Shown here: piece after piece, positions 5,540 to 58,270 of the stretch
How the letters are laid out: each line of letters begins with the position of its first letter
Numbering within the stretch: the first letter of the stretch is position 1
NCBI GenBank assembly: GCA_002269645.1
Contig: NIVC01001159.1
Span: 299,414 to 363,413, forward strand
Length of the DNA stretch: 64,000 nt
Source: Macrostomum lignano
Taxonomy: Eukaryota
Direction: 5' to 3'
Made by a program: the position numbers and the translations under genes
The notes under the pieces: generated by a model
What the model saw: only the letters and a program-made list of their open reading frames with translations
Databases searched by the model: none
What the model was told of the DNA's origin: nothing

Positions 5540-6660
5540 AGAATAGACTTATCCATGCGGGGGACTGTTTTTTAGCCCTAATTAGCTGTCAAGGCCTTTA
5601 GAGCTTAAAAAATGAATCGCTGAGCTCTCTGCTTTCTCATTCCTGATGAGACAGTCCGAAGTGAGCATAGCTGTAGTCGAAAGACTCATCCATACCTAAG
5701 ATGGAAGTCAGCTAACCCCTAATCCTGCAGATTAGGCTAATCCGCCGCCTAACGCGAACAAAATCCATTTGAACTGGCTCACCAAACCTGATCCGTCGAG
5801 GCAGGATTTCCAGCTAGGAGGGATTATAAGGGACATCAAGCAGGCGCTTTTCTGTCCATCTGGAATCATAGAATTATAGAAATGATGTAACCGTCCTTGT
5901 CACCTGTCCGCTCCTATTGAGAGACGAACGCTTGGCTAGAGGGGGCAATGACCATAGGCTGCCTATGACCGGGCAACGACCTGACGGACCTCCAGCACCA
6001 GACTGTCCCGCCCACATGATTAGTAGCTTTGGTAGCGCTTCGTGACCAGAGGGCCAAGGACCCACATGGACCCCACCTGTAGCCAAGGTGCAATAGTTGG
6101 TCACTCGGTCATGGTATGACCGAGTGGCTGCCACCACTCTATGTGACCTGGCGCACCTGGATCTTTCTACCAGACCTCTCGAGGCTAGAGCCCCGCCTGG
6201 ATTGGTTACCAGGGGATTTAGGCTAACAGGGGAGACGCATGCAACCGAGTACAGGGACTCTGCTTGGGGCATGATCGGGAACTCTGGGCTCAATCCTGGA
6301 GGATTTCTCAGCAGGGGATCCTTTGTGGCTGTGAGCGAGGCAGACTTGCGACTTTGATTACTAAGAGTAGTATGAGGCGAACATGTACTGTCTCTAGTTT
6401 AGATTGCTCAGGGCGAAGGGACGCGTTAGCATGGGGTTGCAACCTTCCTACTGCCATTCTGTGCCAAAACTCGCTAATCACCCTCCACTGCACGCACTCA
6501 CGAACCCGCCGCACGCACTCACACAGGCGGGCTTTGCACGGGGAGAGGCCATTAGCTTACCCAAACTTCCTTATGCTTTGCCACCCCGGGAGAAAGGCTT
6601 AGCAAGCCATGAGTTAAATGATGGTGAAAGATTGAATAATGATGAAGTTAGTTAGTAGTT
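5540..6660. mobile_element. Dispersed GC-rich, hairpin-rich repeat family Y, copy 1 (unclassified)
   Basis: Reverse complement of 5700-5830 resembles 61340-61450 (shared GGTTTGGTGAGCCAG); perfect hairpin CACTCGGTCAT-GGT-ATGACCGAGTG near 6101-6125; no credible ORF. Confidence 0.4.
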
Positions 6661-7084
6661 AGTAATTAGGCCTTTAGGCGAATAATTAGGCAATTAGGCG
6701 GCTTCACTATTGAGTAAAATACAGCAAAAAGTTACGGTATCACAATTGGCTCAGCTCTCTAATCAGACAATGGGAAATAGGCAAACCCCGGATAAGCAAA
6801 GGCAATTAGAGCACAAATTAGTAACAGGAACTTACCGGCAGCTGCACAGAGAGAGAGAGAGAGGCGGAGTGACCGGTGGCGGCTGTAGGCTGCAGTCAGG
6901 CAGACAGTGAAGCGGCGATGCGCTGGAGCGACGAGGCGCTGATGTAGATCAGGCGATGCTGATGATGCTGGGCGGTATCAGACCGCTGGCCGATAGGCGA
7001 GCTCACTTGGGGAGCTAAGGATAACTTGGCGGTAACAGACCGCGGACCGGCAGGGATTCGCCTTATAGACGAATAGGTCAGAAC

Positions 7085-7383
7085 ACTACGTAGGACGCAG
7101 AAACTGCTGGGTTTTCAGATGTTTTGACGCAAAAAACGCAAATTATACTACTATCTGAAAATGAAGTAAGTAGTATACGAAAACGCTATCCTAAGCGTGA
7201 TATGGCAATATGTAGTCGTAATAATCCATGTGCTCATATATGTACATTAATTCCATGTACATTAATCCCTATCTATCTCAAATTGGATATGTACATTAAT
7301 TCCATGTACATTAATCCCTATCCCAAATTGTCTATCCCCAATTCTATATGTACACTCACATTAATCTACAGTGTCATCCCCAG
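7085..7383 (+). repeat. Left terminal inverted repeat (degenerate similarity extends to ~7470)
   Basis: Reverse complement of 16278-16630, roughly 90% identical by eye; internal sub-repeats TGTACATTAATTCCATGTACATTAATCC. Confidence 0.95.
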
Positions 7384-7842
7384 CGCGAACCCCCAACATT
7401 ACATGTACAATGCTACATGTACACAGAGGTGAGAATTACTAATCTCATCTACTACCAAATGAGTCAACTAACCGTGTAGCGCACATCATGTATAAGTATT
7501 TACAATGAAGATATATTTACATTTAATCAGTAGCATATTACAGGAATCGAGACATGTACACCATCACCAGCAGATAGAATATACAGAAAATTTTACATTG
7601 TTTTTCAATAATTTTCTCTTCATAAACGATTTTAAACAGGTCTGACATGCAAAATATGTACAATAGATTTTTACATTGGCAATTTCGCCACACACAATAC
7701 AAAAATGCTCTATGTACATGAATTATATATACAGCAAATAGATTCTGATAAATACAGCAGTATTACAATGCAAATTATGTATAATAAATAGATTTTAATA
7801 TTGCAAAATGTACATTGAATCGTCAGTTATAATTGGATTACA

Positions 7843-10800
7843 TTATTTATAGCCATAAGGCCTGCTGCAGGCCCCGTACACACGTTTCGTCAGGACGCGC
7901 TGAAACGTCTTGTCCATACTAACAGTGTGTATGGTACAAGACGCCTTGTCGCGCCTAAACTGAAACTGCGGCAGTTGCAGGGAGCCGCCGTGTAGTAGGG
8001 CACTGCGCAATTCATCGCTGCGCTCCCGAATCTCCGGAGTCAGGCGGATGCCCTTGCATTTCAGGACCTGACTCCGGACACCTGCCGCATCCTCGACAAT
8101 GTAAGTGTAGAGCTTGGGCCCTCCACTTACAAAGTCGGTCATCCGGCTACCTGCGGACACCTCGTCGGTCCACATTCCGAGGCTCGTGCCATGGGGCGGC
8201 TCCCATTGGCCCTCGGAATGCCGGTAAACGACCCTGGGTGTGGGGAGAGAGATAATTAGTTCCACATGCCAACTATTCAATTCTAAATAATTTATCAATG
8301 CAATACTTACGAGTCAGTGTCGCAGTAAATGGCCCGTTCGCCGAGCCCCTCCAAGGCCTCGTACAGGCGCAGCCGGGCCTGCGTGGTCGTAAAGACACCG
8401 ATTGGCACATTGGAGTACCGGAACGGCCGCTGATTAAAGTAGCGGTGCCGGTACTCTAGCAGCATAAACTCGCTGCCAATCGGTTCGCAGGCCTTGACTT
8501 TGAGGTTGGGGTAGGTCAGCCGGGCGAGCCAGTCCTCGTAGCTGGATACTATTTCTGTCGATGTCAGGTCGTCACGCTGACAAAATTTACCCCAGAGCCT
8601 GTGTGTTGTGAAAAGAAGTGCTACTGTTAGTAGAAGAAAATCGTTTTAAAAACAGAATTTATAATTACTTACGAATTCAAAAAGATTTTCGCTACAAAGC
8701 GAAGTCCTGGGTTGGGCTCGACCTTGTCCAGCGTGACGCCCTCCTTTGCAAAGAAATCGGCAATGTAGGCGGCCTTGTCTTCATCCGACATGCCGGGGGA
8801 GCCGCTCGACTCAGCCTTCAGCTTGAGGAAGGTGCTAACATAGTCACTGAACAGGCCGGTCCGCTTCTCTGTCCAGTAGGCTAGTGCGTGCACCACCTGC
8901 AGCCGGTAGCCCAACTGGAAGGCCTTCCGCAGCTCCGGCGTTGCCCAGGTACCAGTCAGTGCCCGCTGCTCGTCTGAGTGGTCACAATCGTCGCCACACT
9001 GCTGCTGCTCCATACAGGTGCGGCAAAGCCCAAAAAAGAGCTTCTTTTGCACTCTGTACGGCAGCAGCGGAATGTGCAAATTTGACGGCGGCAACACAGT
9101 CACTTTGGCAATACCAAAGTAACTAGCCAGCGCGTCAGAATCTAGCACTTGCGGCGTCGGATGTTGCACCGGGTGGCCAATCGGGTACGGGTCCTTTGAC
9201 TGCACCGTCGGGTACAGAGAGACCTGCCAGTTGAAATAAAACATTATTTTCATAAACTGTATTTTTGCAAAATATTCTACTATATCAGTAGTATCACTAC
9301 TCACCACATCCCGATATTTGAGAGTCTCAGTCTCGCTGGCCACAGCATGCGGGATAAAACACTCTACGCGGCCGCCATAGAGAGCATCTTCCATCTTGAG
9401 TGGAGCGCGCAGATGTGCAGTTGCGGCAATGAAATCGGCCTGCGACGCCAATACAGTGTCGTATTCGTGCTCCCAAATGACTCGAACACTGTAATTGTGC
9501 CGCTCCAACTCGCGAGTGAACCACTCAGTCTCGTGGCGGATATGGCTCAGAGGCTGCCGTTTGAGTGGGTGGACAGCATCCTGATCAGGCATGCACTGCT
9601 CGCAGCCATGGTAGAAACAGCCATGAAACTGCAAGACAGTGTTGCTCGCCTCATCAAAACCATCCACCTTGCGGCCAAGAATGACAGCCTCGCCGTCAGT
9701 CGAGTCGCAGGTGCGCAGCCGCCCGCCAAATTCGGTGGCATTCAAATAGGCCAGCCACTTGCGCGCCTTGAATGACTGCTGGTCGGCCTGCCGGGCAATC
9801 ACGCCGACCGAGTTGGGCTCCATAAATCGGGTGGTGAAAACGGCCATTGCCAAACTGGCAATCGTATTGGCCTGTACAAATGGTTCCAGGCCGTCGCAAA
9901 TGTCTCCAATTATTGCCCTGTACTTGATGCAGCCCTCGCGAAGCAGGACTGTGTCGCTCAAACAATAATCGAGATATTCCCGATTAAAGTTGAACAACTC
10001 GCCCTGTCGCGAGGCTAGCCAAGCACAGATTGAGTCATAGTCCTTGTTTGCTTTGCCGCCATAATATTCAATAGCCGGGTAGGAGCCCACGTAGTTCCAA
10101 TTAGCCGGCTTGTTAAACTCGTGGGAAAAGGTCCCCTTGGCCAGCTTTGTGTCAGCGAGTCCCAGAGCTTTGGGGAATTGTGCAAGCGGGATTGGTATAA
10201 AATTTAACGAATCTTTGAATACCAATTTATCCACCGTCATGCTCATTAGCCGGCTGCCCTGGAACAGTACTTGTGGCCGCTTCTTGGCCAGGCCGTTGAG
10301 TAGAGCGCCAAGCAGTAGGAACGAATCGTAGCCTGATGCATTGTGCGCTACAACAATGGCGCCGCCACGGAAAACTGTGCTCAGCCAGGCGAAAAATGCA
10401 TTCAGCGAGGCCGGGCCCACAGACACAAAATCGGCCATTTGGCAGGCGCAGTCTGAGTGGCTGACGCAATTGGAGAATTCCTCCCCCAGATCGCGGCCAG
10501 TCAGACAATTGGCGGCGCTATGCAGGCCATTGCAGAGGCGGCAAGTCTCGCGCGGAAACGCCCGGCCGGAGCAGGTCTCGCAGCACGTGACGGCAGTCAC
10601 CAGGTGCACGTGATGCTGCTTCTCATCGTCCGTGTACGTTTCCGTATCGTAGAACACGTACGGCATAGTCGAAGCTTTCACTTTGGGAGCCTTGACGAAG
10701 CACAAATGCGAGCCGGCCTCGTCGTACTGTTTACACAGTGGGCACTTGACATGCCCGCACTTGTGTTCCGGCTCCTTTTGACCGGCTTTCAGGTCTTCGC

Positions 10801-11825
10801 AATACCCGCAATTGGGGCAGACGCGGGTTGAGCTGCAGCGTGACCGCCCCGCCCGGTTCTTTCGGCGGTGGTTGTCGAAGCACTGCTGATTGTAGCACTT
10901 GAGGCCACAATCAGCACAGCGTTTGTAGTCACGCTGCAGGCTTTTGCAGTCGGTGCCGGGCACTTTGCATTGAGGGCAGGTGTTGGCACACTTGTGCCCT
11001 GCAGAGTTGCAATCATACGGCTGCTGGCAGCGGTCACAATAGCGGCGGGCTCCGAAAAATGGCGGCACCTTGCACACCGCGTTAAAGTGCTCGCAAATTA
11101 GGTGTAGATTCAGCACTTCGCGGCCGGGCAGGGCGTACACGCACGTATTGCCCTCCTCAGCACTGTATACCCGGACGCCGAAATCTCGACCGGGCGACTG
11201 GGCGTTCAGAACTGCCAGCAGTTGGGGGAGCACATCAACCCCGAAAGGCCCGGCCTGTGCAATGGTTGATAAAGACTAAAACATTTGTATATTAATAAAA
11301 TGCAAATTAAAATGTGCAAGAACATTTTTACTCACCGAATACAATTTGGCGGCAATCTGAAGCTCCCCAGTCAGCTTCTTCTGCATTGGGGAGTCGGCCT
11401 TGACGGTTTGCCACGTAGTCCTCGTGATGACCTTGGCCTGCAGGTCGGCAAAGGCCTTGGCCACCACTAGCGCCCGAATGAGGCACCGCTTGTCGCGGTT
11501 GGCGATGACAACATAATTGCGTCCCCCAATTGAATGCCGGGCCTGGATGTGACGCTCCGCCGCATCTAGGCTGCCGCAGCCGCCCCGCGGGACCCAGGCC
11601 TTGAGCAAAAACAATTTAAAGTTGTTGCCCAAGACACTGGAGTCCGACTGCAGAACCTTGTTGATATGCTTGAAAACAAGCTCTGCAGTGAAGCGGGCGG
11701 CGCGGACCGGCGGGACATTGATGGTCAACATCATATTGTCCGCCGTCAGCTTAGCTGCGACGAAATCGTCGACATTCAGGTCGGCGCAGAGGGTTGTTAT
11801 TACCCTAGCGAATGTGTCTCGAATA

Positions 11826-11894
<69 letters not shown>

Positions 11895-13286
11895 TGAACG
11901 ATACCACATATTCACAGCCTTTTGCTCTAAATTTAGGCAGGGCTTTCGCCCCGCCAAGACGCGCAATGAAGCCTGAAAAATTATAGGGTTTTGAAATTAG
12001 AATTGCGAGAGGCGGCAGGTGAATGACTCATGAAATCAACTCCTTACCATCGCCTTCGACAGTGTCGGGCTGGGGCGGGGGTTGAAATTGAGCCAAATCT
12101 GCAATAAAAATGTGCATGGTGACTAAAATTCTGACCGCTTGGAATTTTACAACTGTCAAAAATTTTTGATTGATTGCCTGCAGCAGCAGCAATTTTATCG
12201 CCCCCCACCCCAAGCAACAAAAATCGGCGAGTTGTAAAAACCCCAACTCGGCACGTTCCGACACGTAGCAACAAAAGAAATGTGGGGTTGATTGACCCCC
12301 GTTTCGAATTTTAGGCTGTCAAAAATGTTTGATTGATGACCCCTGATAACACAGATCCTGCCGCAGCAGCCATTGTAAAATTTAAGAAAACCCCCTATCA
12401 GCACGTGCCTCCATTGTGCCTCCTTGACACCTAGCAACAATACCGCGCGGCCGCTTTTGGATTTTAAAGCTGTCTGATTAATAACCCTCACTGTAGCAGC
12501 CAAGTTTTATTGCTGCCAAAACCCCTACTGTCAATTGCAGCGGTGATTACATCATCATGTCCAAAAATCGGGGTTGATTTTATCACTGCCGCCTGCCCAC
12601 CCCCCCCCGCTGAGTCACGTTCGCGCCGCAGGATTGCTGTTTTTGCTTCTCTCTAGTTCAAGGATTAGTCATATACTGCCCCTGGAATTTTATGACTATC
12701 CTCTACAGGCATTATCTGGCTATAGTGCTGCTGCTGATATTCTCTAAAACTCTGTTATTTCAATAGGCCTGAATTGAGAAATCCAGTTTCCTCTTTTTAC
12801 TTCAACATCTATGGCAGGAGGAAATTCATAAATTTTAAGCCAAAATGAATGCTAAAGATGAAAAGCAGTAGTTTCAAAGAAAGCACTATATTATTTCAAT
12901 AAGCATGAATTTAGAGTTTGCAAATCACACGAATACAAATGAATGCTGAACCAAAAGCAGTTCCTCCCTTTACTTCAATCTGCGACAGACAGTCCGAAGT
13001 CCGAATCCGAATTTCAATAAGCTGAATTTAGAGTTTGCAAAGCAACTCCGAATGCGAAGGGTGAAAAGCAGTTTTACAGTGGGCCTATTATTTCAATAAG
13101 CCTGATTTTGAGTTTGCGAAAGCCAAATGAATTCCAAAGATGAAAAATCAGTTTTACAGAGAACAGCCCTATATTTTTCAATAATCCCGAATTTAGAGTT
13201 TCGTAAAAGACAAAGACGAAAAAGAAATTTTTACACAGACTTGCAAGACTCACCTAGTTGTCTCCGCTTTGCAGCCGGAGGCTGTG

Positions 13287-13318
<32 letters not shown>

Positions 13319-13386
13319 CTCGATGGGCCGGCCTGCCCCCACAATGCCGATATTGCCGCTTCCGCAGCAGAGCGCTTCGATGCCAT
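7843..13386 (-). CDS. Protein-primed family B DNA polymerase (pPolB), 7 exons: 13386-13254, 12098-12048, 11972-11336 (one frameshift in a GCA tract), 11254-9305, 9223-8673, 8598-8311, 8233-7843; ~1,330 aa
   Basis: Spliced model restores YRDV|VSLYP (motif A), KIFLNS|LWGKF (motif B) and YCDTDS|VVY (motif C). Also ExoI FYDTET, ExoII AHNASGYD, ExoIII YCLSD, C-terminal PYGY. All junctions are GT..AG with compatible phases. Exons 1-2 rest on splice signals and phase only. Confidence 0.92.
12760..13200. repeat. Degenerate ~85-130 bp tandem repeats in pPolB intron 1
   Basis: About five copies of TTTCAATAAGC..GAATTTAGAGTTTGC. Confidence 0.6.
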
Positions 13387-13527
13387 TTCGATGGGGAAGG
13401 TAGATGGTTGTTGATGCTGCTGATGCTGCGGCTGCTGCTGCTGCTGCTGTTGTTGCTGATGCTGCTGTTGTGGCTTCTGCTGCTGCTGGCTGCTTCTGCG
13501 GATGCGGCTGCAGCAGCTCTCACCCGC

Positions 13528-13535
13528 TTTATATA
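13528..13535 (-). promoter_or_regulatory. Candidate TATA box of the pPolB gene
   Basis: TATATAAA on the minus strand ~140 bp upstream of the proposed ATG (13386). Confidence 0.5.
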
Positions 13536-16277
13536 CCCCGCAAGAGGGAGGGTGGGGTAGGGGCACGAGAATTGTGCGTGATTTTCTTTCCCGGGTCTAT
13601 ATTCTCCAGATTAGTGTACGATTGAACACTCCATTCCGCATTTGGTATAGAAAAGTTGGGGTCAAAATTACCCCGCCAATTCTTTTCTCATGCGGTATTT
13701 TATTGGATCTGAGCGGAGCCATCCAACCGGCACTCTCGCAGGAGTGAAATGGCGACTTCGTCAGAGTACAGTCTCTCAAAGAAGAAGACCGCTTCCTCTT
13801 GCAACATATCTTTTCGACTCGAATCGGATAGAAAACGGTGTTTATCCAGAAAACAATTGGCAGAAGCTGACCAATAATAGCTAAATACAGATGAAAAATA
13901 TGAAAGAAAACTTCTGTGGTTTTTAAGGCCCGCCTGTCTCTGCGAGAAAATGGATGTCAAAAATCGCTGTATCAATTTAATGACCTGGGGGAAATGGGGC
14001 TTGTGTGCAAAGCATCCGATTGACAGAGGCTTGGGGAAGAGTTAATGGTCGATGAAAAGCTCTTGCCATCATCTAAAATATCCATCAAAGAGTAATAGGT
14101 GACAGCCCCTGTCTCGAGCCAAAAAATCAGAGAGACAGAGTTTTCTACTTCTGTTTACGTAATGTTTAGGGATGGACCTGGGGTTATAGTGACAGAGAGT
14201 CAGTTATGGCATTTACGCGGTAGTAAAGAATTGCCTTGGTGAGGCTGGGGTAGGTGTTGTTCTCTCCATATTGGCGAACATTAATAGTCCTGGGTTGAAT
14301 TTTTGAATATAGCTAGAATGTATAGCGGAGAATCGTTGAATTGAAGGGTGATTCAACATGCAAAGTATGCAACAAAACCGATTCAGTGCATCTAAAAGAG
14401 GCTGTTGGGAGCTTCAGAACTGAGAATAACGTTTAAAATAGCATCAATGACATGATTTAGTAATCGAAATCAATTGAATGCTGAAAACTTTAAGTTTAAT
14501 AGCAGACTGTGTTTTTAGCCCCAATTTTACAGTGTCTATACAATATTTCCCCAGCTTCTTGGGCAATATACATGCCTATTTGAATGACAAAACAGCGTTT
14601 TTGATGGTTTATTAGCTAAAATTACGATTTCTATTGATAAAATGACAGATTTCGATCCATAAAGTAAGCATTTTAACGTTTAAAATCGAAAAATGAGGAA
14701 AACTCGTGTTTTTCATGAAAAAAATTGCATTACTAGTAATTTAGCCTCCATTAACTATTTCTTGGGCTGGGCTGGCTGCGGACTTCCATGTGGGATTTAT
14801 TCCTGCTTCGAAGCCGTCTCAAGTAAAGTTGAAACGGCATTTGGGTAAATTAACTGTTGAAGTTTCCAGTGATGAAATTACTGATTTTTATCCACAAAGT
14901 CTAACTTTTAACGTTAAAATTAAAAAACTGTAGAAAACTCGCCTTATATGAAATGTGCTTTTTACGAGCTAGTAATTTAGCTTTTAATAAACTTGGACGG
15001 AATTCCAACTTGGAGAGGTCAGTGGGTGATTCATTCCTGCTTCGAGAGATCGAACTTTCATAGAGTCTGAAAGCTTGAAGTGAGAGGGCAGGGGAAGCGA
15101 TAGAATTGACATAGCCGCACGTTTATGGGCGGGTGGACTTCACTACTTCTAGTATACCGCATTGGCCATAGTGCCAAAGTATTTCTGTGACAAAACACAT
15201 CTATAGAATTCAGTCTCGGAATTGTATGCAGAGGAGACACTGATTCATAGGCTGTGTACATTGACAGATGCAGCTGGGGTTTGTCAATGCAGGTGGAGGT
15301 TGACTCGGATTTGCCCAGATTCGTGGGGTTGATATGTGCATTAAAAGTTGGTTTCTTGCTAACTGGGGCGACATGGATGACGTAATTGGATAAGAGGGGT
15401 TTTGCTGAATGAGGTTTAATTTAAGGTCCGTGCTGTCAAAAGATCTGTTTGAACACTGAAATGGAGAGAGGGGTTGGAATTCCTTGGCATTTAGAAGGGT
15501 GACAGAGAGAACAGGGACGAGTGGTTCAATTCGATTTGCTATAGGGGTCTGCTGACCATTAGAGGGGTGGCTGTTTTCAAACAGTCTTGGGGTTGAATTT
15601 TGAATATGGCCGGAGATAAAGGGTGATTCAACATGCAACATAATTAATTCCATAGTGTACACCAGCGTCAGTGGCACATTTTGCGGATTACAGCGCGACA
15701 AGGGGTCTTGTATCATCTGCACTATCAATAGATATATAAAACATTGCTTTCACAGTCTTGATTTAGAGGCCGACTAAATAAATATATACTTATCAAAGCC
15801 CGGCCGGCTTTTTGTGTAAATATATATACGTCTTTTGACAACTTATTTGACTCGGGTAGAGGCATTGGGAATGACGTAATTGTCTCGGAGTGGTGACGAG
15901 GGCTGAATTCTAGAGGTATGAAGTATAAAAGGAGTGGAAATAACAGTGTGGACCGCGATTTTTGGCTGACTCATGCCTCCTCTGCCAATTTTGGGGGATG
16001 GGCGGCGGTTTCTGCGTACACTGTTTGCTTTCTGTGGATCAGCAGATGCAGATCAGGAAGAGTTAATTCTTGGATGTGCGGCCGCTTTGCAAATTTTGGG
16101 TATAATATCAATATGGGTGGGTGGGCGCTTCTGCATGCTGTTTCAACTATTGAAAACTCATTTGGTAATGGTAGATGAGATTGTACAGCGCGCGCGTACA
16201 CCAATTCTCACCTCTGCGCACAACTGTACACACGTAGTAGGGTTTCGAGTTGTAATTTTGGTGCGCGCGTGGGCCGT

Positions 16278-16630
16278 CTGGGGATGACACTGTAGATTAA
16301 TGTAAGTGTACATATAGAATTGGGGATAGACATGGACATTTGAGATATGGATTAATGTACATGGAATTAATGTACATATCCAATTTGAGATATTTAGGGA
16401 TTAATGTACATGGAATTAATGTACATATCCATTTTGAGATAGATAGGGATTATTGAACATGGAATTAATGTACATATATGAGCACATGGATTATTACGAC
16501 TACATATTGCTACATCACGCTTAGGATAGCGTTTTTGTATACTACTTACTTCATTTTTCAGATAGTAGTATAATTTGCGTTTTTTGCGTCAAAATTCTGA
16601 AAACCCAGCAGAATCTGCGTCCTACGTAGT
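16278..16630 (-). repeat. Right terminal inverted repeat
   Basis: Inverted copy of 7085-7383 with an extra internal sub-repeat. Confidence 0.95.
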
Positions 16631-19298
16631 CAGAACTCAGTCTGACAACAAGTCCCGGAAAGGGGAAAACGTAGAACGTGTGAGGATTCTCATGCCGAAA
16701 TCGCTTCCTTTTATAGACCTCACAGCCGTCTCCTCAAGGTCGTTACCATGGCTCCCTCTCTCTGATTGGCTGCCGGCAAAATGACGTCAGAATGAGTCAT
16801 GATGAGAAGCATGAGACCGGCATAGCAACATGAGAAATCGGGAAATTGCGCAATCCGGAGGTGGGGTTGGGGGGATAATTGGCGCAGCGGGTGGTCGCGA
16901 AAGTATTGCGCAAGCAAACATTGAGAACAATAGGGCTGGGGTCGAGAACAAAGGAATTGGAAAACGGGGATAATTGGGGAGAACTGAGAACAATGGAAAA
17001 GTAAACATTGGGGAAAAGGTGATAATTAGGTGCGAAAACGAGAACAAAAGAAAGAGAAAATCGGAGAAAATGTGATAATTGGTGGGGGTCGAGAGAACAA
17101 AAGAATCAAAAACGAGAACAATAGAAGCGGAGGTGGGGTGGGTGTCGCATGAGAAATTTGGGAAGGAGAACAATAGCGTGAGAAAAGGTTGCGCAAGAGA
17201 GGGGGATGAGTCATCGATGAGTCATCGAGGGGGAGAAGGGGTCACACAACTTGCGTCACCGTTTGGGAGTTTGAGAGGGGATGGGGAGACGGTGAGCACA
17301 CAAAATACTGTAAGTAGACACAGAGAAAGAGAGGACAGCGCAGGAAAAGAGTGCAGAGGGAGACAAAAAGAGGGGGGATAGGGAAAGTACAGGAAGAATA
17401 GGGCGGATAACAGAAGAGATAGGGTAGAGGGGGAGGTACAGAGAGGGGTAGGGGGCTCCGGAAAGGCAGGTGTGGCGGCAGGGGAGACGGGACCAAGGCA
17501 GCAGGAGGGGTGCAGTAGAGCGGGAGTCTCCAGGCCCGGTCGGAGACCTGGCCGAGTCTCGACAGCTCTGCGCAGAGGGTGCACGGGATAGGAGGCACTT
17601 TCGAAAAAGTTCCCATGCCCTATCCCGCGACCAGAGCGTGGTTACATCAGAAGAATAACACCACTGCGACTGCATTCATCGCCACGTGGCTATGTAGGAA
17701 TTCTACAAAGGATCGTTGCACTGCAGTTGAGACAATTGTTGCAACTATCTACATGTGCACGGAAATTATCATTGCTTTTTTATTGAAAATTAGTTTTCGC
17801 GTACCGACATTTGGCTACAAATTGAGTTTAGCTGGCTCTTCTCATCGGTCAGCTCTGATGCAAGATTATTAGAGCCACACGTACATGATCATATGCCAAA
17901 ACTCTCTCCTTAAAGTACATGATTTATATATATGTATCTCGATATTCGCAAGTGCTGGCCTGCAATATTCTGACGTCAGCCGACGTACCCGACCAACGTA
18001 ACCGAGGTCCATGGACGTCGCTGGAAAATGGGTATTACGAGAGCGCATACTCTGACGGATGACGACGTTTATACGTCAGCTCAAAGTGGCGTCGGTGTGA
18101 TAGACGTCCGATGACGTCACTGAAATTTGGATTGCTGCACGGACTATGTCAAATGCTTCAATCCAATTGGCTTCCTGGTACTGTCTTGATTTCTCAGTTT
18201 GTATAGGAATGTTGCAGAAATGTGTGTATATTTTCGTCACGTTTTTCTAAGCTTGCATACCAGCATTGGTTTTACACATGAACTGCATGCATGTACATCG
18301 TAGATTTGAATGATTTGCCTCTGTGTGCTATTTTGTTAGTTAATATATAGTTTAACTGTCGCAAGATTACAGTTTCTTTAGTTTTTTTCTGGGGTATACA
18401 GAGTGTTCCGAACTGCATGCATATGTGGGCCTATTTCTGGATTTTTAAGGCTTCTATATTTTACTCGGGAGACAACATACATTATACCAATTGTTTAGGA
18501 TCTAATAACAAAGATAGAGAGTAGGCCTATCATCGCATACTCGTACGCTCGTCGTCCCAAAGATGGCTGTATCGCAGTGCATGGCTTAAGTGGAACCGGA
18601 TGCGAACAGCTGTACCACATGTACATGTATGCGCAGGTCTGGGGGGCCGGGGGGTTAGGGAGGGACATCATCTAGCACGCCTAAAGACAGTCTAGCCCTA
18701 TATAGCTGTGCCTCTTGCCACTGCGCCACACCTTGCTACTACAGTGTCTGCTATGCCATCCTGCCGCATCTTTATTTTGCTTCACCACCATGCATCTCTA
18801 TGCTGCACTATGCCTTGCTACCACACAATTTGTACCACTCTAAGCAACGCTGCTGCGCCTGCAAGATGCTGGAAGCCTTTTGAAAAGCAATCAATTATTA
18901 TTGATTCGCCGGATACGTACTGTTGCCTTATACTTTTCTCATTATCTCTTCAATTTCAATCCAGTTCTTCAAGGTCTCAAGGATCACTGGACTTCAGCTA
19001 TAAAATCCCAGGCTAATATGTGCAGCTTAAAGTATCGAGTCGAGATAGATATTAGTCTTTTACATCTAAATCGGTTAAATACTCTCTTTTCCTCTGACCG
19101 TTATCTGACCTTTGACGCCATCACATCCATCTTAAAAATTAGCTAAACGTAAAATCGCAAAGATAGGAGTGCTTTATCATAATTTGAGTTCTATATATAA
19201 TTTTCCTTACTTCTTCTGAAGTTCAAAATGAATACATCGAAACGATACTGCTACAGTCCACAGGCCAGTCAATTCAGCATGGGATTCGAAAGTAGTAC

Positions 19299-40379: not shown

Positions 40380-40516
40380 ACATGCCCTGTATTCATGTGA
40401 TCGCAGATTCAAATCCAGGAGCTTTGCAGAGCCAACATATCTTATATACTGTATGTATAATCTTTAGTTTTCATTTAACATTGCAGACAGCATCCAGTAT
40501 CTGAGCTTCATCATCA

Positions 40517-42534
40517 ATGCAGCAGCAGCAGCAGCAGTTGCAGACGGCTAGTGGCCGATTTTACCTTCGCGGCCGTCAGCTTTCCGTGTCAGTCTCGGTC
40601 AGTCCGGACGCCCTAACGGCCGAGGTTGAGTCGGCTGGCCGACTTTGGGCGGGAGAATTCGAGGCGGCCTACTTGGAGGAGCTGACCAGGAAGACCGGCA
40701 GCTACAAGCGGTTCGAGGTGTTCGCGGGCATGCTGCTGTCGGCTGTGGGCGAGCAGCAGCAACAGCAGAAGCAGAAAAAGAAAAAGCAGCACCAGGATGA
40801 AGCTGAGCAGCTCTCTCTAGACCTAATGACGCTGGAAGATCTGCGAGCCCTGCGAGCTCAGCGACTTGGCGAAGCGGATTCTGCGGCAGCAGCGACGCCG
40901 CGGTCTGGCGCAGGCGGGGATGGCGGCAAGCGCTACCTGATCCTGACCTACCGCACCCGCTTTGATCAAGTGCACTACCCGCTGGCGCTGGCCCACCAGG
41001 GCCGCGTCAGCCGAGCTGGCGCTGACAGACATCGTCGGGATCAACGAGACGGTGTCGACGCAGCATTGACCTCAAGCGACGTCGACGCAGCCAATGAAGC
41101 TGAGCAGAACGGCGACGACGGCAACGGCGAGACGGCGCGCTCTCTTGCCGCCGAGAATGCGCACTTGCGCGCCGAATTGGCGCTAATGCGGCGCCGACTA
41201 ACCGCGGCCGAAGCGGCCTCGGCAAAGCAGAAGCGCCAGGCCGATGAGCTCCGAGCCGGCGAGCGGCTGCTCCGCCTGCGGATTCGCCAGCTGACGCACG
41301 AGCTGGCGCTGCTGCGCAGGGCGCCGCCGTCCCAGTCAGGGTCCCGGTTCACTTCGCCCGTCGGTGGTCGCCGGACAGCCAGTCGTCCAGCCTCGGCTGG
41401 CAATTCGCCGTCGCCTTCGCCAAGAGTGCGAGATCAGAGGAACTATAGTTACCAGCAGCAGCAGCAGCAGCAGTATGCCCGCTATCAGAGGCGTCGGTCG
41501 CCTTCGCCCAGACCGCCGCAGCCGCCAGCTGCGACGCCGCGATCGGCGAGGCAGCCCAGGAGCGGCTACGTCGTCCCGTTGCAGCGAGGTAAATTTTTTT
41601 ACCGCAAAAAATATGGAGCCCGTTCTATAAAGCCATCGTAAGATAAGATCGTTCTTAGCTCCTATCTCCGAAGTCATACACAACGCTCACACAGAGTGTA
41701 CATCGGCCCTGACTGTCTAATCATCAGGCATGTACACTCTCTGTGCCTCATGGGCTGGTCCTCATGGTTATGAGTCTCACGACAACCCGCTGGCCAAGTT
41801 TTCGTGCACGCCAGCCCCTTGAATGAATGCGATGTATGAAGCAGGCTTTATCGTCAGACAGGGGACACAGGAGGTCAGGATTTTGGAATCATATGGGGTT
41901 ATTAGGGTGGGAATTTACAGTAGTCAGATGGGTCAGATGTGACGCGGTTCCATACCTGGTCACTGCACTCATTCAGAGGCCGAATGGGTCGTTCACCCCC
42001 GCAGAGCTTGCATCTTCTGCTAGGCAGCCGCCGCCGCCGCAGCAGCAGCAGCGCAGGCGGCCCCGCTCCAACTCCTGCCCCCGCTTCGATCCCACCGCCT
42101 ACGTCGCCGATGTCGAACGGCGTCGTCAGGAGAGCCGCGAACGCCGTCGACGCGACATCTCCGATCGGATTCGGCTGGCCGGCGCGCCGTCGCCTCCGCC
42201 CTCGGTGGTCTCGTCGACCTCCAGACGCGGCGGCGTCAAACGACGAGTCACCGTCGGCTTGGAGGATTCCTTCGACGGCGGCGTCGGCAGCTTTGACGAC
42301 TTGCTGGACAATGGTGACTTTGTCGACGAGGCTGACAGCGTCCAGTTGGGCAGCTTCAACTTGTCCTCGCGACGGCGCTCTCGACCGCGCCAGCCGCGCT
42401 CTTCGGCGAGAAAGAAAACCCCGGCTTCGGCGGCAGCCACGGCGGTTGAAGGCTACGAAGATGACATTCAGCAGATTGACGAGCGGCTGGACCGGCTGCA
42501 GAGCTTCTTGAACAAGACGCTGCTCATTCACTGA
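40517..42534 (+). CDS. CCDC61: Coiled-coil domain-containing protein 61 (VFL3) orthologue; exons 40517-41588 and 42005-42534
   Basis: WAGEFEAAYLEELTRKTGSYKRFEVFAGML, LSLDLMTLEDL, KRYLILTYRTRFDQVHYPLAL (SAS6-like head), coiled coil, PRFDPTAYV and C-terminal IDERLDRLQSFL; phase-1 donor 41588 fits acceptor CCCCGCAG at 42004. Confidence 0.92.
41705..41830 (+). repeat. Short dispersed repeat, second copy at ~51138-51248
   Basis: Shared GCCCTGACT.TCTAATC.TCAGGCA.TGTACACTCTCTGTGCC and TTTTCGTGC. Confidence 0.6.
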
Positions 42535-52260: not shown

Positions 52261-53348
52261 GCGCATTTGAATGTTTCAGCTTGAAGTTAGAATGATAACA
52301 CAGGCTTTTTCAGCTCTCCCATCAAGTCAGTGCAGCTCTTGTTGGATGGGCCTTCTCAGAACAGGGCAAGTCGAGCTTGACACTTTCTGGCTGGCAGGGT
52401 GTGCCGAAGTCCGAGGCTGCTGGATTCACTTCTGACTGGCCGTCATCAGCAAGTTGAAGACATGCAATGGCCTCTAGCTGCTCACCAACCGTAGTGCCCT
52501 GGGCAAGCACGCGAAGGCGTATTCAGCATGCCAGTGAAGTATGAGACAGACTAGGCCCATGGGCTAAGGTCTGCGATGCTTCACGCCTGCCCCTATCTTC
52601 AGCAGGTCAAGGCTGGTGGGAGGTCTGCACCCTCTATTTGCCTCTGGCAGCCGCAGACCCCCCCCCCACGCTGTCTCGCAAGTCGACCCAGGGTACTCGT
52701 CCCCGCGTGTGTTCAAGGCAGTCCCTAGGGCTGCTGGACAGACTGGGCTCCGGCGCTGGCGACCCTATCCAGTGGCTTCGGCCGAATTTGGGTATGCGGG
52801 TCTGGCTCGCCAACCTGCAGGCCGTGGTACTGCTCAACGTACTCTCTAATGCCTAAGGTGTTGACCGTGCCGATGGGCTGGAAGGCCGGGGAGTAGTCCG
52901 GTCGCAAGCGGTCCCCCTCCTGGTGTCGGGCCAGCCTTGAGGGTGCTATTGGCCTACTGCCCGGTCAGGTGGAGCGGCCGGGTGGGTACCGCGCCCCTTT
53001 GAGGGTAGCCCACCAACATTTTATCATGGCCTTCGAGCCGACTATGGATAACCAAGCTTTTTCTAGGTACGGGGACCCTTCTAAACCCCAACCTCAGTCC
53101 GAAGGACCGGCCGGCCCTGCTGGCAGATCCCAACCGACTGATTCAACTGTGGCAAAGGAAAAACTCAAAATACCCAAAGACCTGCCAGCTCCGCTGGTGG
53201 ATCTAAGGGAACCGCGAGCTCTGAGCCTAAAGGACCGGCCAAATCTGGCAGATCCGATGAAGCTCAGCGGGCTCGGCTTGAGCGCAAACGCGCTAAACAA
53301 CGCGCCAAAAGGCAGGCCAAGAAGGGAGCTGCGGGGGCCAAAGCGGCG

Positions 53349-54506
53349 GTGTCCACCATGGATGCTGAAGCGACTGGCGTCCCAAGGCAACCAGACGGGC
53401 CGGTCGGTGGAAGCTCCGGTAGTTCAGCGGGGGCGCTCCCTGGAGATGCTGCTGCGGCTGCTGAGGCCGAAACCACGGCGCAACAAATGGCCACTGCCAA
53501 CAAGGAGGTTCCTTCGGGAGCTACCTTTGCGGCGAAGGCCAAGGCCAAAATCCCGGGAGTGATCATCCAAGGTCGCGACCAGGACTGGACCACTGATCAG
53601 CTTCAAAAAGTGTGGAGTGCTGTTGACTCCTATCTGATTGAGCTGACTGTCGAGGAGGGAATCTCCATCGGCATTGAGCGGATGGTGCTGCGAAGCACAT
53701 TCGTTCTTATTGCTCCTAGCAGCGAGGAGGACGCTCGGCAGCTGCTCCAGCGGCTACCGACGGTCTCCTTGGATGCTGACCTTGGCGGAGCTCTTTTTCT
53801 TCGCGAGGGCCAGCGTCCAAAGACGATACCCTATGTGGTTTTCGTCCCTGCTAAGAGCACCGCAGCTGGACCAGACGTTATTCGCCGGGTCCTACTGCGT
53901 CTGAACCCCGACCTCCCTGCTAGTGGACTGGTGTATCACCGCAAAGTCCGCAGGGGGGAGACGGGCAACTCAATTGTCCTCGGCCTTTCCAGCACTTGGG
54001 CGAGTCGGTACCCTAATGGATCCTCTTTCCAGCTGGGTGCCCTCAAGCTCAAGATGCGCCGAGGAAAGTCTGCCAAAGGGAAGGCTACTGCCAACCCCGG
54101 CATCTCCGGCAAGAGCGGGGCGCAGTCTAAGGCCCAAGGAAAGGCGCAAGCCGATCCCAAAGCCAAAGCTGCATCTCGCCCCTCTGCTAGCAGCAGTTCG
54201 GCGACCGCGGTAACGGCTCCGGCCAAGCCCCGGGAACCAAACCTGCCAGTCGGAGAAGGAGTTGAGGACGAGGCCGGGTCTTCGGAATCCGAGCTCTCCT
54301 CGGCCACCCTGGTGGGGTCTGAAGGTAAAGATGCAGGTGAGGAAGCTTCCTCCATCCTGTCATCGGAGCCTGAGGACTCTGCTGGGGGGCCGGTGGGGGT
54401 GAGGAGGCCATGGACGTCGACCAACTCCCATCTCCCAGTCAAGCCCCAGCGGCCTGGGACGAGGACGATCTGTTGTCCAAGTCTCCTTGATGGCCCTGGG
54501 CTCTAG
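53349..54506 (+). CDS. LINE ORF1 (LOA-type; frame is open upstream to ~53142)
   Basis: Position directly before ORF2; basic N-terminal stretch; central domain resembling LOA ORF1; no CCHC knuckle seen. Confidence 0.7.
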   Translation: MSTMDAEATGVPRQPDGPVGGSSGSSAGALPGDAAAAAEAETTAQQMATANKEVPSGATFAAKAKAKIPGVIIQGRDQDWTTDQLQKVWSAVDSYLIELTVEEGISIGIERMVLRSTFVLIAPSSEEDARQLLQRLPTVSLDADLGGALFLREGQRPKTIPYVVFVPAKSTAAGPDVIRRVLLRLNPDLPASGLVYHRKVRRGETGNSIVLGLSSTWASRYPNGSSFQLGALKLKMRRGKSAKGKATANPGISGKSGAQSKAQGKAQADPKAKAASRPSASSSSATAVTAPAKPREPNLPVGEGVEDEAGSSESELSSATLVGSEGKDAGEEASSILSSEPEDSAGGPVGVRRPWTSTNSHLPVKPQRPGTRTICCPSLLDGPGL

Positions 54507-54529
54507 CCAGACATTGCATTTAATACAGT

Positions 54530-57500
54530 ATGACTAAGCTCCACGCTGCCAAAGGAGCGACATTCTGTCTGCAAATAAATTTACAGCATTGCGTATCTGC
54601 GTCAGTAAATCTGATGAAGATTGCTGAGCTGTACAGGCCAGGCCTCATCCTGATCCAGGAACCCTGGATGCGCAACGGTAAGTTGCCCAACATTCCCTCT
54701 GGCTACTCTGATTTTTATGTGTGTGGCCCGGGGAACAGCCGCCCTAGAGCGGCTATCCTCGCTGCTAGCCATCTCCAGGCTTGGCTGAGGACTGATCTCT
54801 CTGATGGAGACCTTTGCGTCATCCAATCTAATCATTTCTCTCCGCGTACGTGTCTTGTTGCCTCGGTTTATATCCCAGGCGACAGAGACCCTGCTCCTGA
54901 GAGTTTACTGCGCCTCGCGCAGTACTGCGAGTCCCAGAACGCTGAGCTGTGCTTAGGGGGCGACCTCAACGCGCACCACAAGCACTGGGGCAGCAAAGAT
55001 ACCAACACTAGAGGAGAGGAGCTTCTGGACCTCATCTCTAACACAAACCTCATGCTCTGCAACCGCGGCAGCACTCCTACCTTTAATAATGGCAGATGGA
55101 CCGAGGTCCTCGACGCCACACTCGTTACCCCAAGACTCTTTGACAGAGTTGAGGAGTGGAGAGTCTGGTCTGAGGAGCCCTCCCTGTCCGACCACTGCTT
55201 TATCGCCTTTAACATCGCGGACACTAAAACCCAGTCTCCGATCACTTGGAGACGCAATATCCGCAACACTGATTGGGCGGCCTACAAGGCTGCCCTTGAT
55301 CTGCACCTGCAGGAACTCACGGACTTACGTCCGATTGAGACCTGCGAGGATGTGGATCATATGGCTGAGACGCTGACAGGTTGCATTATTGAAGCCTACG
55401 AAGCGGCTTGTCCTGCTCGCGCCTACAAAGGCAAGACCTCGGCGCCGTGGTGGAACCCGGAGCTGGGGAAACTCAGGCGGAAGGCCAAAAGCCTTCATCG
55501 CCGTGCCATGAAGACCGGAAACCCGGAGGACATGGAGCTTTTCCGGCAAGCCTCCCGCAATTTCAAATCTGAAGTGCGCAAGGCCAAGGAATGTAAGTGG
55601 CGCCAATTCTGCAATGAATTGGATCAAGACAGACCTACTTCTAGGCTTGTCAAGGCCCTTACAATGGACAAAATGTCCAAATTAGCCATGATCAAAAAAG
55701 ATGATGGCTCTCTTACTAAAGACCCTGAAGAAGTGCTTCAGCATATGCTTAGCACATTCTTCCCGAGGGTACCTACTGCTAGACCGGAGCCCAACCATTC
55801 GATGGATGGAGCCACCCTAGCGGCGGGCATTGTCACTGAAGACCTAATCGCTCGTGCGGTCAGAACCTTCAAACCCTTCAAATCTCCTGGACCTGATGGT
55901 ATCTACCCTGTTCTCCTTCGTGAAGCAGCCAAGATACCCTCGTTCCTGAGACTCACCCGCAATCTTATGCGGGCCTCTATCCAGCTGGGATACGTTCCCA
56001 AATGCTGGACTGAAGCTCGGGTAGTCTTTATTCCCAAACCTGGGAAGGGTGACTACCAAAGCGTCAAGGCCTTCCGGCCTATTAGCTTAACGTCAGCAAT
56101 GCTTAAGCTCACTGAGAGGCTTATTCTCTGGCGGCTGCTGTCCTGCGAGCTGACAGCGATGCCCCTCAGCAATAATCAGCACGCCTTCCGTACCGGGAGG
56201 TCGACTGACAGCGCCTTGCATGCGATTGTCGAGAAGATTGAAAGGGCGGTACTGGGTGACGGTTACGCTCTGGCTCTCTTTCTTGACATTGTTGGCGCCT
56301 TCGACAACGTTATCTTTGAAGCGTTTCAGAGGGCCCTTCAAAATCGCAAAGCTCATGCTACCCTCATACGGTGGATCATGTACATGATCTCCAACCGTAC
56401 GGTCACTGCCCAACTTCTTGGGCAAACTGCCTCCACCAGAGTCTGTAAGGGTGGACCCCAAGGCGGAGTCCTCACCCCGACGCTCTGGAACCTGGTCATG
56501 GACGCTCTTTTGAGTGACTCCCGACCCGACCCCGTCTTCAAAGTCGGGTATGTTGATGACGTCACGGCCATTGTGGCAGGACCGTCTCCCAGCACGCTCA
56601 GGGATCTGATGCAGAGCTTTATCCGCAAAGCAGAATCCTGGGCCAATGACAATGGTCTGGAACTCTCTGAGCCCAAAACCGTTGCCATTATGTTTACCAG
56701 CAGACTACGCTGGAACATACGTCCTCTGCAGCTCTACGGCAGAGATATTGTCTTCGCGCACCAGACCAGATGTCTCGGGGTCATACTTGACCACCGGCTC
56801 AACTGGTCCTCCCACGTGAAAGCAAAAGCCAAGCGTGCCTCAGCCATCCTGGCCCAGCTCCGACGAGCACTTGGCACTTCTTGGGGCCTATCCCCAAAGC
56901 GGCTTTGGTGGATCTATACTTCCGTAGTTAGACCTGCCATTACGTACGCCTCTGTTGTCTGGGTTAGCGCTACCCAGGTCAAAAGCCATGCAGACCTGCT
57001 CAACACGATCCAAGGCAGAGCGTGTAGGCTCATCTGCAACGCCACCAGGTCCACGCCCTTTGCTGGCATGGGGGCCTTCCTTAATCTTCCGCCTCTTGAC
57101 CTCTTCATCAGGGGTGAGGCGGCTAGAACGACGCGGCGTCTAATTGATGCCGGCGTCAAATTCATTTACATGAGAGCACCTGCTAAGCGGAACCTTGTCC
57201 CGCATAGCGATCTGTGCCTCAACTTTCTCAACGAGTGTCAGGCCAATTGCGTCTTCACCGATGGCATTGCCTCAACGCTCAACCTGAGACAGCGCTACTC
57301 CGTAGCTATCGACTCGCGCGATAACATCAATGACCAATGGAACCCTGGTGAGCTTCATTGCTACACCGACGGTTCTAAGCAGTCAGCCAACACCGGCTTT
57401 GGTGTTGGAATCTTTCTGAACGGGAGGGTCATCGCTACCCACGCTCAATACACTGGGGTCAACTCCAGTGTTTTCCAAAATGAAGTTCTGGCCATCAGCT

Positions 57501-58270
57501 CCTGCACTGCAGAGCTTCTCGCCACTGACGTTACTGGTAAGAACATCATTTTCCATTCGGACAGCCAAGCTGCCTTGCACGCCATCAGTGGCTGCAGCAC
57601 CAACTCTGCTACAGTCCTCGACTGTATCAAACTCCTCAACGTGTTGGGTTCCGCCAACAAAATTACCCTTAAGTGGGTTCCGGGGCATGTGGGGATCCGA
57701 GGAAATGAGTTGGCTGACACCCTTGCAAAAGTTGGTGCCTCCGGCTCCTCTCTCAGCCCCGAACCTCTTGTCCCGATTCCTGGCTGTATCATCGACTCGC
57801 GCATCAAAGCGTGGATCAGGACTCAGCACCGCTCGACTTGGGCGAACCGCACGAACTGCAGGCAATCCAGAGGCGCTGTCCCTCAGCCCTCTCACCAGCT
57901 CCGGAAGCTCCTCTTGCGCCTCTCGCGCAGAGACATCCGGGCTGCCACCATGACCCTCTCTGGTCACGGCTGCTTCTCCAGGCACCAGTACCTGCAGGGC
58001 AACGCCACCAACGCCACCTGTAGTTTCTGCAACTCAGGTGACGAAACCGCTGAGCATTTCGTCAGCATCTGTCCCGCCTTCACGCGGGCCAGACTCACTT
58101 ACCTCGGGCCACACACATCTATTACTGAAGCGTGCAAACCCGAAAACTTTAATCAGCTCATGCGCTACCTTCGGGCCACCCGCAGGGCTGAACTTTCCTT
58201 TCCAGAGAGCACCATAGCTGCTGGCGACACTGGGGGACCTCCCTGGGCGGCGCCAACCCTCCGTCCATAG
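54530..58270 (+). CDS. LINE ORF2: AP endonuclease, reverse transcriptase, RNase H, C-terminal CCHC
   Basis: QINLQH, LIQEPW, GGDLNAHH..WGS, LSDH; KSPGPDGI, FRPISL, QGGVLTPTLW, YVDD; YTDGSK, E48-like QNEVLAI, SDSQAAL, WVPGHVGIRGNELAD; CSFC..ETAEHFVSIC; uninterrupted 1,246 aa. Confidence 0.97.
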   Translation: MTKLHAAKGATFCLQINLQHCVSASVNLMKIAELYRPGLILIQEPWMRNGKLPNIPSGYSDFYVCGPGNSRPRAAILAASHLQAWLRTDLSDGDLCVIQSNHFSPRTCLVASVYIPGDRDPAPESLLRLAQYCESQNAELCLGGDLNAHHKHWGSKDTNTRGEELLDLISNTNLMLCNRGSTPTFNNGRWTEVLDATLVTPRLFDRVEEWRVWSEEPSLSDHCFIAFNIADTKTQSPITWRRNIRNTDWAAYKAALDLHLQELTDLRPIETCEDVDHMAETLTGCIIEAYEAACPARAYKGKTSAPWWNPELGKLRRKAKSLHRRAMKTGNPEDMELFRQASRNFKSEVRKAKECKWRQFCNELDQDRPTSRLVKALTMDKMSKLAMIKKDDGSLTKDPEEVLQHMLSTFFPRVPTARPEPNHSMDGATLAAGIVTEDLIARAVRTFKPFKSPGPDGIYPVLLREAAKIPSFLRLTRNLMRASIQLGYVPKCWTEARVVFIPKPGKGDYQSVKAFRPISLTSAMLKLTERLILWRLLSCELTAMPLSNNQHAFRTGRSTDSALHAIVEKIERAVLGDGYALALFLDIVGAFDNVIFEAFQRALQNRKAHATLIRWIMYMISNRTVTAQLLGQTASTRVCKGGPQGGVLTPTLWNLVMDALLSDSRPDPVFKVGYVDDVTAIVAGPSPSTLRDLMQSFIRKAESWANDNGLELSEPKTVAIMFTSRLRWNIRPLQLYGRDIVFAHQTRCLGVILDHRLNWSSHVKAKAKRASAILAQLRRALGTSWGLSPKRLWWIYTSVVRPAITYASVVWVSATQVKSHADLLNTIQGRACRLICNATRSTPFAGMGAFLNLPPLDLFIRGEAARTTRRLIDAGVKFIYMRAPAKRNLVPHSDLCLNFLNECQANCVFTDGIASTLNLRQRYSVAIDSRDNINDQWNPGELHCYTDGSKQSANTGFGVGIFLNGRVIATHAQYTGVNSSVFQNEVLAISSCTAELLATDVTGKNIIFHSDSQAALHAISGCSTNSATVLDCIKLLNVLGSANKITLKWVPGHVGIRGNELADTLAKVGASGSSLSPEPLVPIPGCIIDSRIKAWIRTQHRSTWANRTNCRQSRGAVPQPSHQLRKLLLRLSRRDIRAATMTLSGHGCFSRHQYLQGNATNATCSFCNSGDETAEHFVSICPAFTRARLTYLGPHTSITEACKPENFNQLMRYLRATRRAELSFPESTIAAGDTGGPPWAAPTLRP

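Follow-up and report, generated by a model that had tools for sequence, protein, structure and literature searches.

A polymerase-bearing Polinton-like element of Macrostomum lignano and its integrase- and capsid-bearing partner: probable halves of a bipartite Polinton

Polintons are defined by a polymerase and an integrase on one molecule, and dependence between transposons is normally one-way. The yeast linear plasmids pGKL1 and pGKL2 depend on each other. Bipartite begomoviruses have a DNA-A and a DNA-B of equal size, one of which carries the replicase, and a shared short origin region sets the compatible pairs. The Polintons and adintoviruses presented in the available portions of PMC8502044 and PMC10748475 are single molecules of 13–25 kb in which pPolB and integrase are found together. 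The same portions describe an Alpha-class OTU-pfam03175 PolB for adintoviruses, as well as mixed pairings.

The mobile element studied here occupies positions 7085–16630 (9,546 bp) of the window, which is the whole stretch of 64,000 nucleotides of Macrostomum lignano DNA that was analysed. It is bounded by matching terminal inverted repeats (TIRs) of about 300–350 bp, whose pieces are 90–100% complementary, and a looser complementarity reaches ~7460/16160. An earlier note on this DNA had reported ~300-bp TIRs and a perfect CAGAAC target site duplication (TSD), and both are confirmed: nine of nine other fetched copies of the target repeat are empty and present a single CAGAAC followed by the right flank, which establishes the exact ends and the TSD. 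The target is a high-copy host repeat of at least 2.2 kb (window ~5880–7084 and 16637–17650), conserved at 96–98%, with at least 40 matches listed in the genome. Elsewhere in the window, two long open frames of 454 and 1248 aa (53142–58270, plus strand) presumably belong to a non-LTR retrotransposon with endonuclease, reverse transcriptase and RNase H, and a host ORF encodes a 378-aa coiled-coil protein (40505–41641, plus strand), which may resemble CCDC61.

Compared with Polintons, the element presents TIRs within the range of 100–1500 bp, a TSD within that of 5–8 bp, and a protein-primed family B polymerase (pPolB) with Exo and Pol motifs, exon 3 being out of frame in this copy. Within the same TIRs there is no rve integrase and no capsid, protease or ATPase gene, and the size lies below 13–25 kb.

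The sole gene of the element is pPolB, on the minus strand (PF03175, E 8.7e-27). Its coding sequence of ~4 kb is divided by six introns into 7 exons over 13386–7843 (Table 1), and a TATA-like box lies upstream of exon 1 (13528–13535). Four GT-AG introns are absent from contigs of three runs guessed to be RNA and retained in a run guessed to be DNA, no run being recorded as RNA. Introns 1 and 3 are predicted from the sequence. pPolB contains the motifs of an exonuclease and of a polymerase, as well as a Cys/His pair assigned tentatively to an OTU protease; the motif names and the VSR label used for exon 4 are presumptive and follow the names of homologues. The ~4-kb coding sequence had been recognised earlier, and the frame break in exon 3 had been missed. 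In the window copy this exon (635 nt measured) contains a CAG-type tract (~11830–11895) and has stops in all three frames; it is open in seven of nine sister copies. The window copy is either broken or affected by an assembly error in the repeat, and as assembled it could not make a full-length polymerase.

Table 1. Features of the polymerase element and of its target site, in window coordinates
Feature	Position	Strand	Evidence or remark
Left TSD copy CAGAAC	7079..7084	.	One copy at 9/9 empty paralogous sites
Left TIR (core)	7085..7383	+	Self-comparison; pairs with 16278-16630
Family 'key', terminal 30 nt	7085..7114	+	Common to the family-A integrase/virion partner; predicted origin and integrase site
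pPolB exon 7, C-terminal	7843..8233	-	Sequence and spliced contigs
GT-AG intron right after motif C (YCDTDS)	8234..8310	-	Spliced in 3 RNA-guessed runs; same place in family B
pPolB exon 6, motif B end to motif C	8311..8598	-	Sequence motifs
GT-AG intron inside motif B	8599..8672	-	Spliced in 2 runs; same place in family B
pPolB exon 5	8673..9223	-	dN/dS 0.06 within family A
In-frame GT-AG intron inside motif A	9224..9304	-	Spliced in 3 runs; same place in family B
pPolB exon 4	9305..11257	-	PF03175; putative OTU-protease His, Cys-rich region, Exo I-III, VSR-like insert, motif A start
Intron 3, predicted	11258..11335	-	Donor found; acceptor read off sequence; absent from the spliced joints listed
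pPolB exon 3	11336..11972	-	Putative terminal-protein region and OTU Cys motif; layout by analogy with the available portion of PMC11161782
GT-AG intron 2	11973..12047	-	Spliced in 1 RNA-guessed run; same place in family B
pPolB exon 2, short	12048..12099	-	Weak match to family B; 5' edge predicted
pPolB exon 1	13254..13386	-	Start codon and basic NLS-like end, predicted from sequence
Non-coding arm, subtype A1	13600..16150	.	PC4-like and dUTPase genes there instead in subtype A2; source of gene-less palindromes
~200-bp block	15774..15980	.	81–84% identical to inner TIR of the integrase/virion partner
Right TIR	16278..16630	-	Self-comparison
Right TSD copy CAGAAC	16631..16636	.	9/9 empty paralogous sites

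Genome queries with the TIR (217 candidates, 40 of them scored) and with pPolB (99 matches) revealed, as the earlier note had anticipated, several copies that share gene content and differ in TSD. These polymerase (P) elements are 8.5–10.4 kb long, with TIRs and a distinct 6-bp TSD per copy. The pPolB matches form family A (94–100% aa identity) and family B (62–68%), besides degraded pieces, and the polymerases of the two families are ~65% identical to each other. Full P-A copies measure 9.5–9.7 kb and P-B copies 8.5–9.8 kb; they have the pPolB exons in common, and intron positions are identical in both families (4/4 tested). Within family A the dN/dS of the pPolB exons is 0.06–0.19 (0.10 for exon 4). 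Neither integrase nor capsid was matched in the fetched stretches at 23 family-A loci or in the arms of families A and B. Family-B elements were considered as full-length helpers and rejected, since their layout is integrase-less like that of family A. The view that the window element is a one-off internal deletion does not hold: it is one of a family of copies that agree in gene content and differ in TSD, and among the families fetched it shows no high identity to a resident full Polinton, its pPolB giving no tblastn match (E<=0.01) to those tested and the ends differing. Animal Polinton-type polymerases outside Macrostomum lignano are 33–38% identical to its pPolB.

The earlier statement that no integrase or virion module is recognisable in the element is upheld by several comparisons. 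No Pfam match over cut-off was obtained in the 13 other ORFs scanned. When 277 ORFs from Polinton-bearing loci of the genome were compared with the arms, none for an integrase, capsid, protease or ATPase matched; what did match was low-complexity sequence and a TIR-derived frame that is non-coding. Among five sister copies, the arm at 13.6–16.15 kb shows 8.5–11 frame-shifting gaps/kb, intron 1 shows 11.7 and the exons 0–0.1; by its sequence, the right arm evolves like an intron and is non-coding. Hidden or intron-split genes in 12–16.3 kb, including a split integrase or capsid, were rejected, as ORF, Pfam, protein and gap tests gave none.

The arm type of the element studied here (A1), with neither a PC4-like gene nor a dUTPase, is present in 14 of 23 fetched family-A loci. 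Four family-A loci possess a PC4-like gene (PF02229, E 1e-5) and a dUTPase, and a PC4-like ORF homologous to theirs is found on family-B polymerase elements. Examples of A2 with both genes are G000:C1263:48014-58456 and C157:54556-64414. The description 'replicase-only' is right for the subtype of the element studied here and too broad for the rest; it appears to designate a stripped subtype, not the whole class of polymerase elements.

The same genome contains complete Polintons of at least four families. Those designated C114, C67, C1176, C4619 and C506/C925 measure 15.9–18.2 kb where both ends were found, and the C1176 Polinton has AC...GT ends, the first 7 bases differing between its two ends. 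For PF04665, direct scans find matches and the genome search gave 0, so that this search is uninformative. A degraded, apparently intron-less pPolB with 31% identity to that of the element studied here is located at G000:C234:57213-58975, with a jelly-roll match 17 kb away.

A second class of elements carries the genes that P lacks. The first of these partner (V) elements (G000:C175:235327-245769, 10.4 kb) begins with the family-A first bases and is delimited by a TSD and TIRs of its own. It codes for an rve-chromo integrase (rve PF00665, E 1.8e-8), a putative penton, a major capsid protein, a protease, an ATPase and a TBP-like protein, along with small ORFs; penton, protease and ATPase were called by tblastn to other Polinton loci and by motifs, their Pfam matches being sub-threshold. 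The core Polinton set of pPolB, integrase, capsids, protease and ATPase is complete when P and V are summed, to ~20 kb, compared with the 15.9–18.2 kb of the full Polintons. In the full Polintons of the genome PC4 adjoins the integrase, but in the pair of P and V it sits on P. Ten further V loci were fetched, one of them without both ends found; V elements measure 10.1–10.6 kb, with one of 11.9 kb. Five different pPolBs were compared with ~20 kb around each of the 11 V loci, without a match. The coverage of V in the RNA-guessed runs reveals no introns and does not demonstrate transcription.

The V capsid shares 33% identity with an F54H12.2-like protein and reaches an Atlas score of 0.98 to clusters in which 14–30% of members carry PF21738. 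Its model is all-beta, with two beta-sheet domains (pLDDT 87.6). The jelly-roll assignment is putative and draws on homology, Atlas and secondary structure. A PDB sequence search with the capsid alignment gave 0 matches, scans of viral contigs with V capsid and pPolB found no relative, and ORF236 of V had no usable Atlas match. Capsids 78–80% and 45% identical to that of V occur on contigs of <6 kb (P0045-P0048), which are too short for gene content, and V may have relatives in other hosts. Among 26 metagenome contigs of >=5 kb with a V-like capsid (28–35% identity), 13 carry a C114-like polymerase and none a P-like one. Since none of these distant V-like contigs carries it, the P polymerase may not be the original one of V, and a simple fission is made less plausible by distant monopartite relatives with another polymerase class.

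Two V families can be distinguished, with integrase identities of mostly 97–100% and 77–85%, and capsid identities of mostly 96–100% and 84–87%. The integrase is at most 41% identical to those of resident full Polintons. A Fic-domain ORF (L143:8922-9698, minus; PF02661, E 6.6e-14) and a TBP-like ORF (PF00352, E 9.5e-5) are present in a family-B V element, G000:C181:646907-657417. At 8 loci the V-A integrase matches the 289-aa query without a difference, and the P-A pPolB is 94–99% identical; V-A copies are younger than P-A copies. Several V genes have too few changes within family A for a selection test (dN/dS 0.1–1.5). Between A and B, synonymous sites are near saturation in P and in V, and dN/dS is 0.03–0.13 where computable. 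Both P and V are under purifying selection, seen for the V genes between families, and because synonymous divergence is near saturation while dN/dS is low, the division of the genes between P and V probably predates the divergence of A and B.

The ends of P and V are paired by family. A-type ends are found at all five V-A loci (the group of 97–100% identity) and B-type ends at all five V-B loci (the group of 82%). Over nt 6–24, identity is 0.63 between P-A and V-A and 0.61 between P-B and V-B, similar to the 0.57–0.65 within groups, and 0.21–0.31 across families; three full Polintons compared with P and V gave 0.24–0.35, equal to the cross-family background. The termini form a mosaic of 8-nt blocks, in which nt 9–16 are shared exactly by V-A and P-A in 9 of 14 ends, by V-B and P-B in 9 of 12, and never across families (one of the 25 P-A 'ends' in this comparison is an internal false match). 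Past nt 30 the TIR bodies of P and V differ. In 13 of 14 ends, V-A nt 31–40 equal P-B and not P-A, and P-A and V-A have the ~200-bp block in common, which together suggest that the ends have one origin and that the terminal key has been exchanged. Present P/V pairings may have been re-assorted.

Exact flanking 6-bp TSDs were found in 28 of 32 P and V elements. The nearest distance between a P and a V is 45 kb and no fused copy occurs among 92 P and 62 V loci, both counts being lower bounds (at least 92 and at least 62) that leave room for a rare monopartite copy. The two apparent exceptions in proximity are P-B elements inserted, with their own TSD, in an unrelated full Polinton, within its capsid gene (G000:C4072:14540-22994 and C2932:66727-75423); the capsid genes 4 kb from these P-B loci were rejected as linked partners, being the hosts of nested insertions. 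Complementary essential genes on separate molecules and shared termini, the marks of a multipartite genome, are both found in P/V.

In addition, ten TIR elements of 3.4–9.5 kb lack pPolB and are palindromic over a long stretch or almost throughout; nine derive from the P right arm and eight have a 6-bp TSD. Four further gene-less palindromes present V-A TIRs around a P-A-derived interior. A gene-less element of 18.4 kb (G000:C56:643541-661960), flanked by a 6-bp TSD, combines V-B ends with fragments of P-A and P-B. This element and one of 13.9 kb (C4) were considered as fused elements with partner ends and rejected, the former being gene-less and the latter a V with an insert and no PolB. Palindromes of this kind could arise if P and V replicate together by strand displacement and templates are switched between the two.

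We propose that Macrostomum lignano probably harbours a bipartite Polinton, of which P is one half and V the other. Having no integrase of its own, P would have to borrow one, and to this extent the satellite suggested in the earlier note, borrowing from helper Polintons, agrees with the data. The best-matching helper is a V without PolB, not a full Polinton, and since the end-sharing elements carry integrase and virion genes and no PolB, dependence is likely mutual rather than of a satellite on a helper. It is unlikely that dependence runs one way, with P as a self-replicating, linear-plasmid-like parasite of the V integrase and capsid, and V spreading without P by its integrase alone or with the polymerase of another Polinton. 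Of the readings considered, this one comes nearest to the idea of the earlier note. That V has its own integrase, that V-A copies are more alike than P-A copies and that distant monopartite V relatives use another polymerase class would suit such a parasite. On the other hand, V has no polymerase. Between its families, purifying selection has maintained a complete virion module that could hardly be used if the genome were not amplified; moreover, the terminal blocks of V are shared and co-vary with those of P family by family, and V/P chimeras exist.

Snap-back palindromes are typical of defective genomes, and their presence here, with locus searches that give lower bounds and the 78–80% identical capsids on contigs too short for gene content, could suggest that P and V are two classes of defective genomes, recurrently shed by a monopartite virus not integrated or assembled here. 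We regard this as very unlikely, given the lack of a fused copy among at least 92 P and 62 V loci, the gene-less state of the 18.4-kb element with V-B ends, and the fact that two families at synonymous saturation agree in how the genes are split, in their introns and in having separate TIR bodies. Least probable is that P and V derived independently as non-autonomous elements helped by resident complete Polintons, their shared ends reflecting one helper integrase. Complete families are indeed available, one of them with AC...GT ends, but full Polinton ends are at background over nt 6–24, the P polymerase is unrelated by BLAST to those of resident Polintons, the V integrase shows the low identity given above, and the two end types track two P/V pairs.

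All copies seen are integrated; under the bipartite reading, excised P and V would exist as linear DNA. The terminal protein and polymerase of P would prime DNA synthesis at the 30-nt termini that P and V have in common and replicate both molecules, and the V integrase would insert both, the shared 30 nt serving as origin and integrase site. The V capsid might then package each 10-kb molecule separately, which is the weakest step; the near-equal sizes of P and V and the retained non-coding arm would fit it. Template switching between co-replicating molecules could give rise to the terminal-block mosaic and to the chimeric palindromes of P and V. That the two depend on each other and that they are packaged are predictions. 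More tentatively, and with more doubt than conviction, P and V may constitute a double-jelly-roll dsDNA virus with two separately integrated and packaged 10-kb proviral segments, neither of them autonomous, in which an exchangeable 30-nt key sets the partners; the stripped and palindromic elements would then be parasites of this virus.

If the proposal is right, a stable two-part Polinton whose halves need each other, and which has persisted while two families diverged, would represent a new genome organisation for Polintons. With the replication and virion modules apart in a laboratory animal, extrachromosomal protein priming and particle formation are open to observation. Surveys requiring a 900-aa pPolB ORF with a nearby integrase, as in the available portion of PMC10748475, would miss P/V, and other cases may be hidden. 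No precedent for a bipartite Polinton was found in literature searches or in the available portions of PMC10748475, PMC8502044, PMC11071296, PMC11161782, PMC8363768 and bioRxiv 2026.10.13.758929; repeat libraries such as Repbase and Dfam may contain these families.

P shares TIRs, a 6-bp TSD and pPolB with Polintons, Mavericks and adintoviruses, and P plus V equal their core set. P/V differ from described Polintons in that the modules lie on separate elements of 9–10.6 kb with independent insertion; the ends are ACTAC, versus AGTAGT in the full Polintons of the genome, and the P pPolB has six introns. The yeast plasmids pGKL1 and pGKL2, as presented in the available portion of PMC11161782, are like P in being Polinton-derived TP-OTU-pPolB replicons without a virion module, but are not integrated and have no TSD and no capsid- or integrase-bearing partner. 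Begomoviruses are circular ssDNA plant viruses with a rolling-circle Rep and unrelated proteins, and provide only an analogy to P/V. Bidnaviruses and the Drosophila Vesanto virus (available portions of PMC8502044 and PMC8363768) resemble P/V in being segmented, with a Polinton-related PolB and matching segment termini, but they have ssDNA and a parvovirus-like capsid, without integrase and without TIR/TSD integration. P/V therefore do not belong in Bidnaviridae, whose marks are ssDNA, a single-jelly-roll capsid and no integrase, as V has a Polinton-type capsid and an integrase. If the proposal is correct, P/V would be a dsDNA parallel to the segmented bidnaviruses, whose polymerase came from Polintons.
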